Virus record (IMG/VR): IMGVR_UViG_3300032163_000008
Coordinates: 1-64,000 of that record
DNA: 64,000 nucleotides
Origin: a virus
Strand: one strand, 5' to 3'
Part shown: positions 6,930-63,462 of the stretch, piece after piece
How the letters are laid out: the number at the start of each line of letters is the position of its first letter
How positions within the stretch are numbered: the stretch's first letter is position 1
Translations under genes and position numbers: made by a program
The notes under the pieces: generated by a model
What the model was told of the DNA's origin: nothing
The model's input: the letters and a program-made list of their open reading frames with translations, nothing else
Databases searched by the model: none

Positions 6930-7130
6930 ATGAATACTATGAGAAGTTTGCAAGAGCTACAGAAGGTGCCGTTTGCTAAGATGACGACAGAGGAAGAGTG
7001 TTTGTTTGTTCCTCCCGTCACGTCCAGGTTTGCACAGACCATGAATGAAGTTTGTAACAATGAAGTTTGTCATGAGGAAGATCACGAGGCCTACATGCAG
7101 TTTCTAAGTTTGGAGATGAGCCAGCTATGA
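6930..7130 (+). CDS. hypothetical protein
   Basis: operonic with neighbours. Confidence 0.6.
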   Translation: MNTMRSLQELQKVPFAKMTTEEECLFVPPVTSRFAQTMNEVCNNEVCHEEDHEAYMQFLSLEMSQL

Positions 7131-7411
7131 AGAGTTATATCATAATGAGCCAGTACCATGACTATGGGAACATCGAGACCTTCCTGAGGAGAGGGTCCTT
7201 TGCAACTGAGAAGGATCTTTTCAGAGACGTGTTCAAAGCTTCCCTGGATCAAGAGGATGAGCAGGGAAACATTATTGGAGAAGTGTTCAATAGGCTAGAG
7301 GGTGAGGAGCTCATGGATTACATCTATGAGACGCTCGTCGATCCAGACCATGAGTTTACGTTAACAGTCTTTGAAGAGGAAAGCTTGGAGCTTGTCCTAG
7401 AAAAGAACTAA
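7127..7411 (+). CDS. acidic hypothetical protein
   Basis: ATGA coupling; followed by 15-bp-stem hairpin at 7416-7459. Confidence 0.7.
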   Translation: MKSYIIMSQYHDYGNIETFLRRGSFATEKDLFRDVFKASLDQEDEQGNIIGEVFNRLEGEELMDYIYETLVDPDHEFTLTVFEEESLELVLEKN

Positions 7412-7615
7412 TTCCTTTGACATGACAGAGACAGAGACCTCCACCTCTGTCATGTCAAATCTCTTTACCACTGTGAGTCCAACTTCCTATACATGTGAGT
7501 CCAACTGTGAGAGATCACATATTTGAAATTTATAATGAATATATATTTTTTTATATAGATGAGTCATATAATAATTTTTTATTATAAATTGACTCACTGA
7601 GGAGGTGACAAGACG

Positions 7616-7822
7616 ATGGACAAGATACAAGCAGCAATTGACAGCAACGAGGATCTGCGCGAGGTTATGGCGTTTGTGCCAGTCAGCGACGCGGAGAGCT
7701 TCAACGACTGGGATCAAGCAGAAGGTTACGGTGTGTGTTTGCCACTGGTAACGGGTATAGTATGTGAGAAGGCTTTGGAGGAAGCTTACAAGGATCTAGT
7801 GCAGAGGTTTGAGAAGAGATAA
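7616..7822 (+). CDS. hypothetical early protein
   Basis: promoter motif at 7533, GAGGAGGTGA RBS. Confidence 0.75.
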   Translation: MDKIQAAIDSNEDLREVMAFVPVSDAESFNDWDQAEGYGVCLPLVTGIVCEKALEEAYKDLVQRFEKR

Positions 7823-7845
7823 AATAAAAGTGGGAGGCACTTAAT

Positions 7846-8439
7846 ATGAGACTAGACGACAGGTTCGTAATCAATGTCAATGCAGAGGATAGAGAAGTTT
7901 ATTGTGAGGATAGTGATAATTCAATGTCCAAGGGTGAGTATGTGGGGTATTGTGAAGATACATCAGGTCAGATGATAGGAGACGTCATCATCAGGTTCAA
8001 CGGTACTGAAGAGGGTTTGTATGACGTGGTAAGTCAGTATTGTGGTGATGAGGATCTGGAAACGGTTAAAGAGTTTGTTAGGGGGAAAGAGTTTGTGGAA
8101 GTGTCAGAGTTCAATGACTACGCCATATTAAGGATGTCAGTGAAGCTCCGAGATGCTTGGGAGCGGATAAGGGAAATAGAGACTAAGTGGGAAGCAGATC
8201 TGAGGATAGTGACCGAGAGGCACAACAAGGGTCTTACAGAGGAACAGAAGCTGAGGTTCTGGGCATATGTGTCTGACTTCTGCTTCAGTGGCAGATATGG
8301 TATAGGGAGTTACTACAGTGACTACGTCATGCTTAATACAAGTGACGGTCACGTGTGTGATGATGAGGATTGGTACTATGGGTACGAGGCTGATGTACTG
8401 AAGGTACTAGAGGATGCGGGCATAGAAGTAGTCAGCTAA
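7846..8439 (+). CDS. acidic hypothetical early protein
   Basis: GGGAGG RBS, 197 aa. Confidence 0.8.
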   Translation: MRLDDRFVINVNAEDREVYCEDSDNSMSKGEYVGYCEDTSGQMIGDVIIRFNGTEEGLYDVVSQYCGDEDLETVKEFVRGKEFVEVSEFNDYAILRMSVKLRDAWERIREIETKWEADLRIVTERHNKGLTEEQKLRFWAYVSDFCFSGRYGIGSYYSDYVMLNTSDGHVCDDEDWYYGYEADVLKVLEDAGIEVVS

Positions 8440-9421: not shown

Positions 9422-9601
9422 GTTTGTATGATCTTATTAAAAAGTTTTTCTAATCGATTTTTGCAAGAAGAAACGTTTGTTTTAGTTGAAGTTTGTTTAA
9501 CTATGTTTGTTTGTATGATCTTATTAAAAAGTTTTTCTAATCGATTTTTGCAAGAAGAAACGTTTGTTTTAGTTGAAGTTTGTTTAACTATGTTTGTTTG
9601 T
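9422..9601. repeat. exact tandem duplication, 87 bp period
   Basis: units start at 9428 and 9515 (atgatcttattaaaaag...tgtttgtttgt). Confidence 0.9.
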
Positions 9602-9631
9602 TTTTATTTATTAATAAGTTTATTAATGAGG

Positions 9632-9814
9632 TTTGTCAGAGTCGTTTGTCACTCGTGTTTGTTGGTCAAGTTTGCTGGGGACGTTTGTCTGGGTGAGTTT
9701 GCTAGAGGAGTTTGCTCTGTAGGTTTGTCGCAGGAGTTTGCTGCATTAAGTTTTGTTGGACACAGTTTGCCCAGGGAGTTTGCTAGAGGAGTTTGTCAAG
9801 CGGTTTGTTAAAGG
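9632..9814 (+). repeat. 13-bp periodic array 1 (KTTTGYY + variable 6 nt)
   Basis: TTTG at 9632, 9645, 9658, 9671, 9684, 9698, 9711, 9724, 9737, 9752, 9766, 9779, 9792, 9804. Confidence 0.9.
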
Positions 9815-57275: not shown

Positions 57276-57674
57276 ATGAAATTAAATGTTAACACCATTA
57301 AAGGCATAACAGCAGCCACCCCAACATTTAAAAACGCTCTTGGGGCGGAGTTAGGTCAGCCCTGCAAGGCTTTTATCGCCTTCAACGGATCTACAGGGGT
57401 GGTTAATTCCAACTTTAACATGCCATCAATCACAAAAGATGGCACAGGAAACTATAGGGCAAATATAACTCCAGGGACTTTCGCCACTGCAACATTCTCT
57501 ATAGCAGGGACGTCTGTTATGCTCCCAACTTCGACTTTTAACCCACACAGGAGAGGCCTAGGAGTAGGAGCCATATCGACATCAGTAGTCTACTGTAGTA
57601 CAGGGTATGTGACAGAAAGTGCGAGTACTTATGAAGATATGATGGTCAGCGTTGTCCTATTTGGACACGGATAA
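57276..57674 (+). CDS. fibre-tip-associated protein, paralogue A1
   Basis: CKAFIAFNG..FN.PSITKDGTGNY..NPHRRG..YED. Confidence 0.75.
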   Translation: MKLNVNTIKGITAATPTFKNALGAELGQPCKAFIAFNGSTGVVNSNFNMPSITKDGTGNYRANITPGTFATATFSIAGTSVMLPTSTFNPHRRGLGVGAISTSVVYCSTGYVTESASTYEDMMVSVVLFGHG

Positions 57675-57678
57675 TATA

Positions 57679-58068
57679 ATGAGCACATTGGCAACAGATA
57701 GTATCTATAGCGTACAGAACACAGTTCCTCCAGTGTTTAGGAACTCTACAGGAGCCGAGATTGGGAAGCTATGCAAGGCTTGGATATACTTTGATGGGGT
57801 TGCTCTAGGTATGGTAGCCTTCAACGTATCTTCAGTTACTAAGGATGGAACTGGTATGTACAGAATAAATATACCAGTGGGAATATTTGCAGATGCTAAT
57901 TACGCTATAATGGGCTGTAATAGTGCGAGTGGCACATATAACCCTCATAGAAAGGGAATCGGTTTTGCGGCTCAATCGGCTACACAGCTTCCCTGCAATT
58001 CTGGGTATGTAACAGAAAATGCTACAGCCTATGAGGATCATCCCATGCATGTTCAGATGTGGTCATAA
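57679..58068 (+). CDS. fibre-tip-associated protein, paralogue A2
   Basis: CKAWIYFDG..FNVSSVTKDGTGMY..NPHRKG..YED. Confidence 0.75.
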   Translation: MSTLATDSIYSVQNTVPPVFRNSTGAEIGKLCKAWIYFDGVALGMVAFNVSSVTKDGTGMYRINIPVGIFADANYAIMGCNSASGTYNPHRKGIGFAAQSATQLPCNSGYVTENATAYEDHPMHVQMWS

Positions 58069-58077
58069 GGAGATAGT

Positions 58078-58479
58078 ATGCCAGTAAATGTACAAACAAT
58101 TCAGAGTCTAACGACAGCTCCTCCAGCGATTACAAACTCTTCTGATGTTGTAAAGGGTAAGTTATGCAAGGCTTGGGTGAACTATAACGCAATAGGAACC
58201 GTGCCCGTTCCTATCAGGGCTTCTTTTAATATTCCTTCAATCACTAGAAATGGTGTGGGTGGGTATATGATTAATATTACTCCTGGTGTTCTTGCAGACA
58301 CTAATTTCTGTCTCATCGGAAGTCAGACATACCCTCAAGGTGCATATGATCCTCATAGAAACGGCACGGGATTATCAATTCAGTCATCAACACTAGTATA
58401 CCAATCGATGTCTTGGGTATCTGAGGGTTCAAGTGGTTTTGAAGATATGACCCAGGGTTGTATTCAGATATATACTTAA
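58078..58479 (+). CDS. fibre-tip-associated protein, paralogue A3
   Basis: CKAWVNYN..SFNIPSITRNGVGGY..DPHRNG..FED. Confidence 0.75.
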   Translation: MPVNVQTIQSLTTAPPAITNSSDVVKGKLCKAWVNYNAIGTVPVPIRASFNIPSITRNGVGGYMINITPGVLADTNFCLIGSQTYPQGAYDPHRNGTGLSIQSSTLVYQSMSWVSEGSSGFEDMTQGCIQIYT

Positions 58480-58968: not shown

Positions 58969-59469
58969 ATGGTATCTACAATATCAGCAGTTGATTTGAA
59001 TTTTACTGGGAACATTACAGTAGCTGGAAACACAGTTATATCAGGAAACATGTCTGCTGCAGGCACAATATATGCCAACTACGCCGACTTAGCGGAGTAT
59101 TTTGATGTTAAAAAGGACGTCGTCCTGAAGCCTGGGGATCCCACGTCCATTGCAGGCCTTCGTACACTCACAACCTACAATGGAAAGAACTACGCAGGAA
59201 TAATTAGTACAGAGCCAGGAGTAATGCTAGGTAGGAGTCGCACTCAAGCCATAGCCCTAGCCCTAGCTGGCACGGTGCCTGTAAGAACTTCTGACACAAG
59301 CATAAAAATTGGGGACACCCTAGTATTAACAAAAAAGGGTAAGATTATTCGAAAGCGTTTTTGGAGCTTATTTTTGACTGTGGTAGGGATAGCGCAAGAG
59401 AAATACAAGAAGACCTCGTTTGGTCCCAACGGCAGTAGTGAGACTCTTTTGAATTGTTTATTAGATTAA
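58969..59469 (+). CDS. stand-alone peptidase G2/IMC-like domain, paralogue B1
   Basis: YADLAEYF..GDP..AGIIS..PG..ALAGTVPV..IGD.LV. Confidence 0.7.
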   Translation: MVSTISAVDLNFTGNITVAGNTVISGNMSAAGTIYANYADLAEYFDVKKDVVLKPGDPTSIAGLRTLTTYNGKNYAGIISTEPGVMLGRSRTQAIALALAGTVPVRTSDTSIKIGDTLVLTKKGKIIRKRFWSLFLTVVGIAQEKYKKTSFGPNGSSETLLNCLLD

Positions 59470-59478
59470 GGGGTATAG

Positions 59479-59841
59479 ATGACTTTTTCATTCGTTGATA
59501 TTTCTGGATGCACCTCTGACACTAATAACGGGTTTAACGGCTCTGACTTTAAATATAAGATCGCACTATTCGCAGAGCTACTAGACACAATTCTCAATAT
59601 ACTAGATGTACCTAGCGCCTCAGTGTCGCTGGCTATCGGAAACGATGATCCTAGTACACTTGAGGCATTCGCAGTAGAACTAGAGAAGGGTCTCATAACT
59701 CTGCATAATAGAATAATAGGTACACAATGGACACCCAAGGAAATGACTTATGAAGAGCGTCTCAATATGTGTCTGGTGCTCTCAGTGTCAATGCTCGACA
59801 ATAATTTAGATGGAGACAATAATGGTATCAACCCTAAATAG
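59479..59841 (+). CDS. hypothetical protein sharing an N-terminal motif with the Cys-rich protein at 60696
   Basis: MTFSFVDISGCTSDTNNGFN. Confidence 0.65.
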   Translation: MTFSFVDISGCTSDTNNGFNGSDFKYKIALFAELLDTILNILDVPSASVSLAIGNDDPSTLEAFAVELEKGLITLHNRIIGTQWTPKEMTYEERLNMCLVLSVSMLDNNLDGDNNGINPK

Positions 59842-60247
59842 TAATATTGAGATAACGGGGAACTTAACTGCTGGAGGCACGGTAAGGGGAACCTATTCGG
59901 ATCTAGCAGAATACTTTCTTGTGGAGGGCTCAATTCTGTGCGGAAACCCTACATCTATAGTAGGCTTTCGAAAAGTTGGGAAGTACAGTGGAAGAGCCTA
60001 TGCAGGTATCAGAAGCTTTAGGCCAGCTATGTCGATGGGTGGAGACATTAGTAAGAGCAGCATTCCAATAGCCCTCAGTGGGTCCGTAAAGGTTAACACT
60101 AGAGACCGAAGCATCAAATTAGGAGACAAATTAGTAGTTACAAAGCAAGGTACGGTTATCCGTAAGAGATGGTATCATTTGGGTTTACCTCTTGTTGGAG
60201 TGGCACAAGAGGATTATAGGAAGAACTCCGTAATGACTTTGGTATAA
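59822..60247 (+). CDS. stand-alone peptidase G2/IMC-like domain, paralogue B2
   Basis: MVSTL start parallels B1; YSDLAEYF. Confidence 0.7.
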   Translation: MVSTLNSNIEITGNLTAGGTVRGTYSDLAEYFLVEGSILCGNPTSIVGFRKVGKYSGRAYAGIRSFRPAMSMGGDISKSSIPIALSGSVKVNTRDRSIKLGDKLVVTKQGTVIRKRWYHLGLPLVGVAQEDYRKNSVMTLV

Positions 60248-60262
60248 TTAAAGGAGAATAAT

Positions 60263-60694
60263 ATGACATCAACTCTAACAGCAGCAGACTTATATATTTC
60301 AGGAAATGTTACCGCTGGTGGTACTGTGCAGGCCAACTACGCGGATCTAGCAGAGTATTTCCTTACTAAAGATACAATTGCTTGCGGTGACCCCGTTTCA
60401 ATCACTGACTTGCGTACGGTAGGAAAATATAACGGAAAATCCTATGCAGGGGTGAGAAGCACTATCCCCGGTTTTTCTATGGGCGGTGAGATGGGCGGAG
60501 GTATTCCAGTTGCCCTAATCGGCTCTGTTCCAGTTAACACTAGAGATCAAAGCATCAGGATTGGAGATAAGTTAGTTTTAACTAGAAGTGGAAAAATTGT
60601 AAAAAAGAGATGGTTTCACGTGTTCACTCAGTATGTGGGAATTTCTCAAGACGCATATAAGGACGGCCAAGTAATGTGCCTATTAGGGGTGTAG
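60263..60694 (+). CDS. stand-alone peptidase G2/IMC-like domain, paralogue B3
   Basis: late promoter at 60243; YADLAEYF. Confidence 0.72.
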   Translation: MTSTLTAADLYISGNVTAGGTVQANYADLAEYFLTKDTIACGDPVSITDLRTVGKYNGKSYAGVRSTIPGFSMGGEMGGGIPVALIGSVPVNTRDQSIRIGDKLVLTRSGKIVKKRWFHVFTQYVGISQDAYKDGQVMCLLGV

Positions 60695-60695
60695 C

Positions 60696-61238
60696 ATGGC
60701 ATTTACATACACAAATGGGTCAGGGTGTAATGCCAACACATCGAACACGTATAACAGCACGATACTTCCAACTAAGGGCTACATAAGAGCAGCTCATACA
60801 AACGAGCTGAGAAAGGCTCTTGAAGACTTCTACGCACAACATCAAGTAACTGCTCCAACATGGGCTGACACACCTACAGGAATGCCTGCTGGAACTCTAG
60901 TTAGAAACCCAGATATTAACGAACTAAGAACAGCTGTCAATAAAATACGACAGCTGGTATATCGATGCACTTGTGATTCAAACGGGTGTTGCGTCTGTCA
61001 TAATACTGGAGGTTGCTGGATGGGAAGTACTTGCGTCTCCCAGTACTTTTATAACTACTCTTCTACTATGGCATTATACACATTCAGTAATGAAACCGGA
61101 GACACCTCAGGGGCAGGTACACGAGTGACAACGAATGCAGTTGATAAGAAGTTTATAAACCAGATCAGGAATGCCATAGATGCGCCAAACTCTAATACAG
61201 CTCCCGCTTACTGGCAGAACTACAACCAGGCTTTCTAA
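60696..61238 (+). CDS. Cys-rich protein, candidate radical SAM substrate
   Basis: HTNELR/DINELR/FINQIR repeats; CTCDSNGCCVCHNTGGCWMGSTC; stop overlaps the rSAM start. Confidence 0.7.
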   Translation: MAFTYTNGSGCNANTSNTYNSTILPTKGYIRAAHTNELRKALEDFYAQHQVTAPTWADTPTGMPAGTLVRNPDINELRTAVNKIRQLVYRCTCDSNGCCVCHNTGGCWMGSTCVSQYFYNYSSTMALYTFSNETGDTSGAGTRVTTNAVDKKFINQIRNAIDAPNSNTAPAYWQNYNQAF

Positions 61239-62698
61239 TGAGAACTATTAATTTTATAACAACTAACAGCTGCAACGCTAACTGTTCCTTCTGTTTTGAG
61301 CAACATAAAAGGGATTTTAAAGCAGTAGCTATTTCAAATGAGGTCGTCGACAAGACTCTCGAGTACTTCTTCAACTTATGGGGGAATACTGACATAATTT
61401 CCATAGACCTCTTTGGCGGAGAGCCCACTCTTGCAGAGGACACCTGCGTGTACACAGTTAATCGCGCAACCGAGATGGCTCGGGAGTATCGGATTAGTCT
61501 GAGATTCTTATTATTCACCAACTGCTTTGTATTTCCTGAGAAGCTAGTAGAGGTACTCTTAGAGTCAAAAGCACTGGTTACAATACAGATATCTAATGAG
61601 GGTGTTGACAATCATCTTAAGGATCATAACAACACCACTCTTAGGGAAAAAATTCATAGTAACATCGAGAGGTACGTTGCAACGAAGCTTCCCGTTATTG
61701 TGAGAGCAACCATGAGTAGTGAGAGTCTAACTACTGCAGAAAACCTCCTAGAATCTGTGAAGCTAATGGTCTCTCTGGGATTAGATTCCTTCTACTTCTT
61801 TCCTATTATGGAGCATGGATGGCAGGAGCACCACTTTAAAGTTTGGCGAGATGGCTTCCACCTAATCGCGGACTACTTATTCGAGTTACATAGTAAGAGC
61901 CCAGAGATACCCTTTAATGTTGGTAACTTTCTTCACGAAGTAACTGAGGAGATCCCCCCAATGTGCGCAGCAGGAGAGGACTATGTGTCAGTTAATACCG
62001 ATGGTGAGGTGTATGCCTGTCAACGATTCTTGCCTATAGCCACAAACACACCACAGTCTATGGGGAGCGTGTTTACTGGAGTGGATTTAAAGCTTATTGG
62101 AGAAATAGGTGCCCATGAGGGCTGCAGAGAGTGTAGGGTAAAAAACTGCAAGATCTGCCCAGCAGTATCTTATGTGGCTCAAGACGACAGGATCGTGATA
62201 GGTAGGGGAGACTACTGCAGAATTCGGCTGATAATGTGGGACGAATACATGTACTACACAGAAAAGATGCAATCTATAGGGCAATATAACCTTCCAACTT
62301 CTGAGCAGCTTGAAGAATTGGATTTAGTGCAATACATCGAAACAATGTTCTATAAGCTGTTTAATGTACCTAACCAGGATGCTGAGTCAGGTTACAACAT
62401 ATACAACACTAGGACTTCATACATGACTAATATTATCCGATACTTCCTGAGGATGTCTAGAGTGTTTATAGACCTTACTGAGGGAGAGCTTGGGCTAGAC
62501 ACATCTCTTACTGATGAGAGCCAGATACTGACCTACCTGATAAAATTTATCGAGAGCATTCTCTTTGAGATATACAATACAAACCCTCAGGTAACATACA
62601 TATACCACGACAATGCTACGAGTCTAACTAGTCTCTCAGCGATGCTAGTGCTATTACTCGAGGAGAAAGGCCAACGCTATGACAGAAACAATATATAA
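61238..62698 (+). CDS. radical SAM/SPASM-domain enzyme
   Basis: CNANCSFC, FGGEP, CAAG..VNTDGEVYAC, CRECRVKNCKICP..C. Confidence 0.9.
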   Translation: MRTINFITTNSCNANCSFCFEQHKRDFKAVAISNEVVDKTLEYFFNLWGNTDIISIDLFGGEPTLAEDTCVYTVNRATEMAREYRISLRFLLFTNCFVFPEKLVEVLLESKALVTIQISNEGVDNHLKDHNNTTLREKIHSNIERYVATKLPVIVRATMSSESLTTAENLLESVKLMVSLGLDSFYFFPIMEHGWQEHHFKVWRDGFHLIADYLFELHSKSPEIPFNVGNFLHEVTEEIPPMCAAGEDYVSVNTDGEVYACQRFLPIATNTPQSMGSVFTGVDLKLIGEIGAHEGCRECRVKNCKICPAVSYVAQDDRIVIGRGDYCRIRLIMWDEYMYYTEKMQSIGQYNLPTSEQLEELDLVQYIETMFYKLFNVPNQDAESGYNIYNTRTSYMTNIIRYFLRMSRVFIDLTEGELGLDTSLTDESQILTYLIKFIESILFEIYNTNPQVTYIYHDNATSLTSLSAMLVLLLEEKGQRYDRNNI

Positions 62699-63407
62699 AG
62701 TAGATGACAACGAACTTCTTAAAAAGGTTTACAGCAACGTAAAATTAGCACATAGAGACATATACAATACTACGATTGCGTATCTAAGTGACTCGCAATT
62801 TCAGTACATATTCGATCTAGTGGTATCCGTAGGAGATCTCAAGAAATCATACGTGGTTGTAGTCAATAACGAAGCCAATATTCAAAAGCTTAAGAACTTT
62901 CTTGTGTCAAAAGGAGTTCCCAGTAGCTTCATATTTAGGCAATATGATGCAGCAATAGTATATGTCTTGAGAATGGTTATAACGGATGGGGTAGTTAGTG
63001 GGATAGAACCAGTGTATCTACAAGGGCACCTACCCGATGGATTTACTCTTGAGTATCTGTCAACTTTCACACCAGACATTCACCCACCTTTTGAAGGTGT
63101 TGCTTGGGTAGAGGGTGATGATACCTTCGGATACCAGTTCACAAACACAGCTTTCTTTGACTCTGTTCAAGCCAGCCATGGTACAGTATATGATAAATTC
63201 ATGGCCACGTATCCCGGACTAGACCTGACGAGACTCTACGGAGTACTGGATGCAGGCGTCCTTAAGTTCTATTATTACACAGCTTATAGAGAGCCTACCG
63301 ACATATCAAATGGGTATTACACGAAGGCAGTTTATGATGAGACCACCGACGCTTTTATTATTCACGAATATACCGGGTATTATAACGAGAAAAAAGTCAT
63401 AGGCTAG
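62679..63407 (+). CDS. hypothetical protein in the rSAM operon
   Basis: overlaps rSAM end; 242 aa. Confidence 0.7.
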   Translation: MTETIYKVDDNELLKKVYSNVKLAHRDIYNTTIAYLSDSQFQYIFDLVVSVGDLKKSYVVVVNNEANIQKLKNFLVSKGVPSSFIFRQYDAAIVYVLRMVITDGVVSGIEPVYLQGHLPDGFTLEYLSTFTPDIHPPFEGVAWVEGDDTFGYQFTNTAFFDSVQASHGTVYDKFMATYPGLDLTRLYGVLDAGVLKFYYYTAYREPTDISNGYYTKAVYDETTDAFIIHEYTGYYNEKKVIG

Positions 63408-63462
63408 CAGCACTTACTCCTATAATTAAACTAAAGCATTTTAATTACGCATAGGAGTACTA

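Follow-up and report, generated by a model that had tools for sequence, protein, structure and literature searches.

Gene content of the locus

We analyzed a window of 64,000 nucleotides that covers the first 64 kb of an IMG/VR virus record (IMGVR_UViG_3300032163_000008, 79 kb) and in which a gene for a Cys-rich protein (60696; genes are named by the window position of their first nucleotide) is coupled to a gene for a radical S-adenosylmethionine (SAM)/SPASM enzyme (61238). A preliminary description of this DNA had proposed that the phage crosslinks a virion appendage protein, with the product of gene 59479 acting as a recognition adaptor. Our analysis supports the conserved gene pair, the thioether-forming relatives of the enzyme and the location within a structural module, and it gives no support to the adaptor role. 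The enzyme probably cross-links 60696, because the gene set recurs in another phage and in bacteria. The features on which this argument is built are the following.

60263 to 60694, + strand: free-standing IMC/peptidase-G2-like protein (paralogue 3), 143 residues, with the motif ADLAEYF; first gene of the conserved cassette
60696 to 61238, + strand: proposed substrate, 180 residues; Cys motif at the N-terminus, three NELR-type helices, Cys-rich insert
60696 to 60755, + strand: N-terminal motif MAFTYTNGSGCNANTSNTYN, in which C11 and N14 form C-x-x-N
60966 to 61034, + strand: Cys-rich insert CTCDSNGCCVCHNTGGCWMGSTC, residues 91-113, with 7 Cys
61238 to 62698, + strand: radical SAM/SPASM enzyme, 486 residues, without the N-terminal recognition element (RRE) of systems for post-translationally modified peptides made on ribosomes (RiPPs)
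61271 to 61294, + strand: CX3CX2C (C12, C16, C19), ligating the radical SAM [4Fe-4S] cluster; invariant in 8 homologues
61964 to 62218, + strand: SPASM region with C243, C261, C296, C299, C304, C307 and C327; all seven invariant in alignments A6 and A8
62204 to 62695, + strand: C-terminal five-helix extension, residues 323-486, of no known family

The 60696 protein contains eight Cys residues, C11 and seven that fall within the 23 residues of the insert. No other part of the record has Cys as densely packed (7 in 30 residues); its + strand open reading frames (ORFs) have a median Cys content of 0.6%. The NELR tetrapeptide occurs twice (residues 36-39 and 75-78) and is followed by a third copy in the degenerate form NQIR (residues 155-158; ELR or EIR in the homologues), which places the Cys insert between repeats 2 and 3. 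The Cys-rich string first noted between NELR repeats was recovered as residues 91-113, after two NELR copies and before NQIR. The TAATG coupling to the enzyme gene was also confirmed, with the TAA of 60696 at 61236-61238 and the ATG of the enzyme gene starting at 61238, a stop/start overlap at 61236-61240.

The phage protein has no signal peptide. It matched no Pfam, NCBIfam or PHROG family, and searching PDB sequences with the 60696 family gave no match. Its homologues are P0001 (58%), P0002, two proteins of a bacterial genome (G001) and one protein of a second phage contig (L063). A five-sequence alignment shows no variation at M1, F3, C11 and A13, and four N and one D at position 14; five Cys of the insert (C93, C98, C99, C101 and C107) are likewise invariant. 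The Cys-rich insert is kept in every homologue and is expanded to ~15 Cys in one of the bacterial proteins.

As a separate observation, the NELR-type repeat (a unit of ~38 residues, e.g., VRAAHINELRxAV) is also present as three tandem copies in large secreted bacterial proteins that do not have the Cys insert (L002:998-2929, L003:93-611, L004 and L005); no Pfam model covers the repeat.

The radical SAM/SPASM enzyme

The initial call of a SPASM radical SAM enzyme was upheld by profile and motif analyses. PF04055 was matched with 40.7 bits against a cut-off of 29.5, the CX3CX2C motif is accompanied by GGEP at residues 60-63, and the seven-Cys SPASM pattern (C243-X12-G256-X4-C261, C296-X2-C299-X4-C304-X2-C307, C327) is invariant across the 8 homologues. 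Two of its spacings, X4 and X2, stand in place of X5 and X3 in the canonical motif (CX9-15GX4C...CX2CX5CX3C...C), and the Pfam SPASM model scored 15.3 bits, under its cut-off of 21.5.

The best NCBIfam match was PapB (NF047865; 1.8e-37; 129.3 bits vs. a cut-off of 340), followed by the CXXX-repeat maturase TIGR04115 (1e-25; 91 bits vs. 350), and the enzyme lies outside both of these families. Further matches were to a ScfB-related family (8e-21), the SCIFF maturase (3.6e-19) and QhpD (7e-13; 48 bits vs. 453). TIGR04463, the family of CrpC, was matched with 36.6 bits against a cut-off of 525, which places the enzyme outside that family as well. By sequence, the nearest relatives of the enzyme are formers of Cys-to-carbon thioethers, namely CteB, PapB, the SCIFF maturase and QhpD.

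The best PDB sequence match was CteB (5WGG, 2.8e-25), and because the alignment begins only at CteB residue 97 the N-terminal RRE is absent from the phage enzyme. The radical SAM core begins at residue 2, and the alignment to the SCIFF maturase begins at position 104. An AlphaFold2 model of the enzyme had a predicted local distance difference test (pLDDT) score of 78, and Foldseek returned CteB first (8e-13), followed by anSME, ChlB, SkfB, TigE and SuiB. C-terminal residues 323-480 form five confident helices in this model (pLDDT ~80-90). This helical extension is present in all full-length members of the enzyme family. It gave no credible match in Pfam, where the best one (E 0.096, 13 bits) was far under the cut-off. 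A complex prediction for the enzyme and 60696 gave a score of 0.00, which speaks neither for nor against binding.

Conservation of the gene set

A neighborhood check confirmed that the Cys-rich gene and the enzyme gene are a conserved pair: another phage has it, a bacterial chromosome has two sets of it, and further clusters have more distant versions. The triad of an IMC-like domain, a NELR/Cys-rich protein and a radical SAM enzyme is conserved in this phage, the second phage and a bacterium. Scans of IMG/VR with single proteins and with the first alignment returned no relatives; the broader enzyme alignment A6 alone found them. For P0001 (58% to 60696) and for P0004 (56% to the enzyme), the longest contig reported has the same length, 22,687 bp, which suggests, indirectly, that they lie on one contig.

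The second phage contig (L063, 85.6 kb) carries baseplate and fiber genes followed by a 470-residue Kelch protein, the C-terminus of which is the IMC-like domain. The next gene encodes a 194-residue homologue of 60696 that starts with MTFSWTNTNTPCSRN and has three ELR helices, the Cys insert and a terminus reading ...NNLTF, and it is followed by a radical SAM enzyme with C-terminal helices.

The bacterial sets were found on a chromosomal contig of a Marinamargulisbacteria metagenome-assembled genome (MAG; G001:C25, 25.2 kb) flanked by ilvD and gcvP-type genes. Here the order is an IMC-like protein with a Tat-like signal, a 207-residue Cys-rich protein starting with MTFTFSTTGACQAN, the enzyme rSAM2 and an overlapping 211-residue gene. 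This IMC-like protein, whose gene immediately precedes the bacterial Cys-rich gene, shares 39% identity (E 1e-25) with the phage protein 60263. A second Cys-rich homologue on the contig has a predicted signal peptide, and the end of its mature form, AFVYSNAGACQAD, is the N-terminal motif of the phage protein; rSAM1, which is 38% identical to the phage enzyme, lies near it. TatC and five further radical SAM genes are found in the surroundings. Across this cluster (L055, L056 and L006) we counted at least seven radical SAM genes, two of them of the B12-binding type, together with two 206-residue paralogues with signal peptides. It has the look of a large set of genes for the maturation of secreted proteins.

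The next-nearest enzymes (22-24% identity) lie 3 kb from a 251-residue protein with NELR-type helices and 17 Cys. This pairing was seen at seven bacterial MAG or genome loci (six labeled Omnitrophota and one Planctomycetales) and on more than 15 IMG/VR contigs. The 60696 family and the Omnitrophota-type family were aligned by hhalign with a probability of 92% (E 6e-7), QCSSN being aligned with GCNAN. The loci concerned (L007-L013 and L058-L095, e.g., L011:4537-9122) are nearly identical, include Ca. Velamenicoccus archaeovorus, and show the 251-residue protein followed by three radical SAM/SPASM genes; the cluster may belong to a prophage or phage of that phylum.

In at least 10 viral loci, a related radical SAM gene directly precedes fiber-like proteins with CxCNxD-type hexads (C-x-C-N-x-D/V). 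In 8 of these loci a helix is followed by hexads that run into an S74-type SD[EIQ]RLK motif, and Pfam S74 was confirmed in 3 of the 3 tested. Both protein types are joined in L066 (...VNELRTKINELRQDCVCNTDC...). Two further observations concern such loci. An N-terminal C[ST][ST]N and four hexads precede S74 in L081, L084, L086, L088, L093, L094, L096 and L097 (~7100-7900 in each), and a viral contig of 136 kb has, downstream of a related radical SAM gene (26% identity), a tandem pair of paralogues of ~200 residues (L057:8269-9488), each with ~25-30 Cys in CxCNCNYxCTC repeats.

Comparison with known systems

CrpC and CrpA of Methanococcus voltae are the one characterized case of a SPASM enzyme that cross-links a large Cys-rich protein: CrpC puts ranthionine links into CrpA, a 28.8-kDa protein with a C-X-X-Q/D motif, and CrpA and CrpB have their first 47 residues in common, co-expression of CrpB seeming to raise the extent of CrpA modification (PMC13692751). 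The phage system would resemble this one in that a whole protein is modified, not a short peptide, and in the presence of a second protein with the N-terminus of the substrate (CrpB there, 59479 here). CrpC has an N-terminal RRE and belongs to TIGR04463, whereas the phage enzyme is without an RRE. CrpA differs from 60696 as an archaeal protein of 17-residue repeats, with no NELR helices, IMC-like partner or phage context.

PapB, which makes Cys-to-Asp thioethers in the C-x-x-x-D rings of PapA (freyrasin), resembles the phage enzyme over nearly the whole of its 330-position profile. However, PapA is a short leader-plus-core peptide and the target here would be a 180-residue helical protein, and the phage enzyme adds a helical domain of 165 residues. 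The closest solved structure by both sequence and fold is CteB of the CteB/SCIFF system (PDB 5WGG, 5WHY), with a full SPASM domain and two auxiliary clusters. CteB binds the leader with an N-terminal RRE (residues 1-96) that is absent here, and its substrate has 45-50 residues. The CXXX-repeat system (TIGR04115/TIGR04119) provides the second-best NCBIfam match, but 60696 is no long regular Cys repeat: it has CxC and CC spacings, not CXXX, in a short insert within a three-helix NELR protein, and an additional N-terminal Cys motif.

The radical SAM/SPASM enzyme QhpD cross-links Cys to Asp or Glu inside the protein subunit QhpC in the cytoplasm before export. This cytoplasmic cross-linking in quinohemoprotein amine dehydrogenase (QHNDH; TIGR03906) is paralleled by the secreted bacterial homologues found here; the sequence match to QhpD is weak, QhpC is not related to the protein here, and neither phages nor fibers are involved. 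Taken together, the NELR three-helix substrate with its N-terminal Cys motif, the RRE-less enzyme with its helical domain, the IMC-like partner and the secreted bacterial counterpart make this a distinct family.

Candidate modification sites

The invariant part of the N-terminal motif is a Cys with N or D at +3 (CNAN, CTSD, CQAN, CQAD, CSRN and CSSN). The residue at +3 from Cys is N, D, Q or E in 60% of cases in the family and in 64% in the viral CxC-repeat fiber proteins, against a background of 21-23%, an enrichment that is partly a by-product of the hexad repeat periodicity, which inflates the statistic. The hexad C-x-C-N-x-D itself consists of two interleaved C-x-x-N/D units. Because of this pattern, and because the ranthionine sites of CrpA are C-X-X-Q/D, the N-terminal motif is probably a modification site or a structural element of the substrate and not a disposable leader.

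The motif had been taken for a RiPP leader, a reading that we could not sustain: the motif does not have the obvious character of a removable leader, and it is an invariant Cys element (C-x-x-N/D) of the substrate family. We also rejected a signal peptide or classical cleavable leader, given that the motif is not hydrophobic and that it follows the predicted signal peptide in one bacterial homologue. The locus likewise departs from a classical RiPP system in that the enzyme has no RRE and the target is a three-helix protein of 180 residues with no removable leader and no peptidase or exporter, Pfam and PHROG scans of 58.5-63.5 kb having returned neither a peptidase nor an ATP-binding cassette (ABC) exporter.

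A different explanation of the Cys cluster is that it forms a Zn or Fe-S site, or disulfides after lysis, and that the radical SAM enzyme carries out formylglycine formation, epimerization or the formation of a C-C link, with 60696 or a different molecule as its target. The CxC and CC patterns do resemble metal-binding motifs, and phage fiber tips, those of T4 gp37 and gp12 among them, bind metal ions. The presence of anSME among the top fold matches, and scores under the cut-off of every thioether family, likewise leave room for other chemistry. Still, we regard this explanation as unlikely. The nearest sequence relatives of the enzyme are all formers of Cys-to-carbon thioethers. Lineages very far from one another have kept the pairing, with Cys counts ranging from 8 to ~30, and this is easier to reconcile with repeated sites of enzyme action than with a single fixed metal center. 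In addition, the +3 N/D/Q pattern matches known ranthionine sites (PMC13692751).

Flanking genes and the proposed adaptor

Upstream of the enzyme-substrate pair are two further IMC-like genes, gene 59479 and a promoter-like motif, and downstream is a gene coupled to that of the enzyme.

58969 to 59469, + strand: free-standing IMC/peptidase-G2-like protein (paralogue 1), 166 residues; PF11962; directly upstream of 59479
59479 to 59841, + strand: orphan ORF of 120 residues with the N-terminal motif MTFSFVDISGCTSDTNNGFN (C11, D14); outside the cassette bounded by TATAATTA
59810 to 60247, + strand: free-standing IMC/peptidase-G2-like protein (paralogue 2); likelier start at 59822 (MVSTLN...)
60243 to 60250, + strand: TATAATTA, a candidate late-promoter element, over-represented and just upstream of the four-gene cassette
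62679 to 63407, + strand: protein of 242 residues, unknown family; its first 20 nt lie within the end of the enzyme gene

The window contains 18 copies of the octamer TATAATTA against 4.6 expected; 16 of them are on the + strand, and many are found just upstream of gene starts (other sites are, e.g., 26702, 31016, 47097 and 53814). It is a candidate phage promoter element. The copies at 60243 and 63421-63428, the next one, bracket genes 60263, 60696, 61238 and 62679. A late promoter had been suggested for 60696; what we find is only this over-represented motif, and its nearest copy (60243-60250) precedes gene 60263 and not 60696.

The free-standing paralogues have short N-terminal stubs, which may be cleaved off. 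The IMC-like assignment of 58969 comes from PF11962 (the autoproteolytic Peptidase_G2/IMC domain), which was matched with 26.3 bits against a cut-off of 25 and only over profile positions 32-101 of 228. Paralogue 2 is 49% identical to paralogue 1 (alignment A9), and D40 and E43 of the motif [AS]D[LY][AG]EYF are invariant in the 5 sequences of the same alignment. Paralogues 59810 and 60263 reach only PHROG tail-fiber families, at 3e-4 and 1.8e-5, respectively (phrog_19602).

The N-terminal motif shared by 59479 and 60696 is real and not a chance resemblance. BLASTP aligned the two proteins with an E of 2e-4 (residues 1-63), hhalign aligned 59479 with the 60696 family with an E of 0.0018 (residues 1-45), and the similarity extends into the first helix (AELLD vs. 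NELRK). A regular expression for the motif matched these two ORF starts only in the six frames of the 79-kb record, and a looser one, applied to 1.4 Mb of fetched loci, matched the N-termini of 60696 homologues with no stray match. The body of 59479 had also been thought to align with the C-terminal region of the enzyme, a similarity that did not hold up (BLASTP E ≥1.7; hhalign probability of 0.15% against the enzyme family). No homologue of 59479 was found among 5.8 billion proteins, and neither L063 nor G001 nor any further cassette that was fetched has a counterpart.

These results bear on the proposal that 59479 is an adaptor or chaperone that presents 60696 to the enzyme through the shared motif and a body like the enzyme C-terminus, which we consider very unlikely. 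The shared motif is specific, and CrpA and CrpB offer a parallel in their common first 47 residues and the raised modification of CrpA (PMC13692751). The idea is thus not absurd, because CrpB seems to raise CrpA modification; yet nothing here supports an adaptor. Gene 59479 is an orphan ORF absent from every related cassette, its product has no similarity to the enzyme C-terminus, and it lies upstream of the TATAATTA copy that precedes the cassette. Its similarity to 60696 into the first helix is as expected of a decayed paralogue. Gene 59479 follows IMC-like paralogue 1 as 60696 follows paralogue 3, and the simplest and more likely reading is that of a duplicated unit of an IMC-like protein and a NELR protein, the second gene of which has decayed to its N-terminal module with C11-x-x-D14 kept. 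As such a truncated, lineage-specific paralogue of 60696, the 59479 protein would at most be an extra substrate with one site, or a competitor.

Gene 62679 is coupled to that of the enzyme, but no counterpart was evident in the related cassettes: the only homologue is P0013 (30% identity), the gene at this position in L063 is unrelated, and the 62679 protein had no Pfam, PHROG or NCBIfam match and only scores below 0.8 in a protein atlas. We considered and rejected homology to the genes after the bacterial enzymes, which share YPGL and YYY strings (hhalign probability of 0.35%, no significant similarity). The genes overlapping the ends of two bacterial enzymes are related to each other (3e-7) and not detectably to 62679. 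Gene 62679 is therefore described here as a coupled gene without an assigned role, and its conservation is not demonstrable.

Genomic setting

The sequence is real, because identical fragments (contigs covering parts of the stretch) turn up in a second sediment study; a sediment metagenome is the best holder of the sequence, and no RNA run is listed among the holders. The same proteins were seen again on a contig of 171,862 bp. Among GenBank phages blastn gave no match, and tblastn gave distant radical SAM enzymes only. From ~20 kb onwards every gene is on the + strand.

Upstream of the cassette are genes for a 1057-residue protein with PHROG tail-fiber and structural matches, a 2225-residue structural protein and a 1142-residue repeat protein. 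Between these large fiber-like genes and the cassette lie three paralogues of 132-138 residues and a protein resembling a tail-fiber assembly protein. The tandem paralogues 57276, 57652 and 58078 (window 57276-58479) have the common core KLCKAW...NxxSITKDGTGxY...NPHRxG; 58078 matches the tail-fiber family phrog_11355 with an E of 5e-9 and 57276 matches it weakly (E 0.0022). Downstream, past the window, are a tail fiber (phrog_772, 1.5e-40), a tail sheath (phrog_279, 7e-70) and a tail lysin. With fiber-like genes upstream and the tail fiber, sheath and lysin downstream, the cassette lies inside a myovirus structural module. Elsewhere in the window, an early-region ORF on the + strand (9428-9811) encodes 127 residues with 10 Cys (7.9%).

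It could also be that the cassette is an acquired accessory module and that the modified protein acts outside the virion, e.g., as a released or host-directed factor. Bacterial homologues with a signal peptide or Tat-like signal, the TatC gene in a chromosomal cluster of multiple radical SAM genes where no phage genes were seen, and the lack of any PHROG match for 60696 would agree with such a role. Against it, the phage copy has no signal peptide, and the cassette lies within fiber and baseplate genes in two unrelated phages. In distant relatives a domain typical of fibers, the S74 chaperone, is fused to the Cys repeats, and IMC-like domains mark fiber or spike assembly. We therefore hold a role outside the virion to be quite improbable. 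In the best explanation, genes 60263-63407 are a late cassette in the structural module of a large uncultured sediment myovirus.

Proposed mechanism and significance

In the mechanism that we propose, the enzyme would use SAM and three [4Fe-4S] clusters to link Cys sulfurs of 60696 to carbons of nearby residues in the cytoplasm, a reducing compartment that does not allow disulfides. The candidate sites are those Cys found in C-x-x-N/D/Q, namely C11 of the N-terminal motif and three Cys of the insert (C91, C93 and C113), and the product would be a thioether-stapled knot between helices 2 and 3. Because the enzyme is without an RRE, we propose that it would recognize folded or partly folded 60696, perhaps via its family-specific C-terminal helical domain, and not a cleavable leader. 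The stapled protein may then serve as a small fiber-associated part of the virion.

Several points weigh against this stapling of a virion protein. The enzyme is far under the curated cut-off of every named maturase family, so that homology does not settle which chemistry it performs. Of the eight Cys in 60696, only four have N, D or Q at +3, and the family-wide enrichment is inflated as described above. The AlphaFold2 model of 60696, built from 5 sequences, shows three helices with a pLDDT of 54 and is of low confidence, the Cys region and the N-terminus being unresolved in it. Gene neighborhood alone points to a virion location, and the homologues in the bacterium are secreted proteins whose 25-kb contig showed no phage genes. 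Finally, the Cys-rich region could have a different function, as a metal site or in disulfides that arise after lysis. On balance we put the explanation overall, in which 60696 as the substrate, the thioether chemistry, the sites and the place in the virion are all inferred, at even odds.

A more general and more tentative suggestion, which we think possible though rather doubtful, is that leader-independent protein stapling is common to phage fibers and secreted bacterial proteins. The RRE-less enzyme would dock on the folded three-helix NELR domain via its C-terminal helices and set ranthionine-type thioethers from Cys to N, D or Q at +3 in the N-terminal motif and the Cys loop. This would harden a fiber-associated part that possibly contacts the host, with the IMC-like domain aiding assembly. 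Disulfides do not form in the reducing cytoplasm, and the thioethers may be their substitute.

To our knowledge, the known targets of radical SAM/SPASM cross-linking are small peptides of an antibiotic-like kind and, in very few cases, whole proteins (QHNDH; CrpA, 2026), and in the literature searched we found no paper that ties thioether cross-linking to phage or virus particles. In one paper on a cyanophage, such an enzyme is entered without explanation as an "antibiotic synthesis gene" (PMC12801897). If the stapling of 60696 is correct, it would constitute a new kind of virion maturation step and would account for the recurrence of such enzymes beside phage fiber genes. It would also provide a compact RRE-less enzyme with a defined substrate of 180 residues for studying the recognition of folded proteins. 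Furthermore, the secreted bacterial counterparts near TatC suggest a wider class of stapled extracellular proteins.

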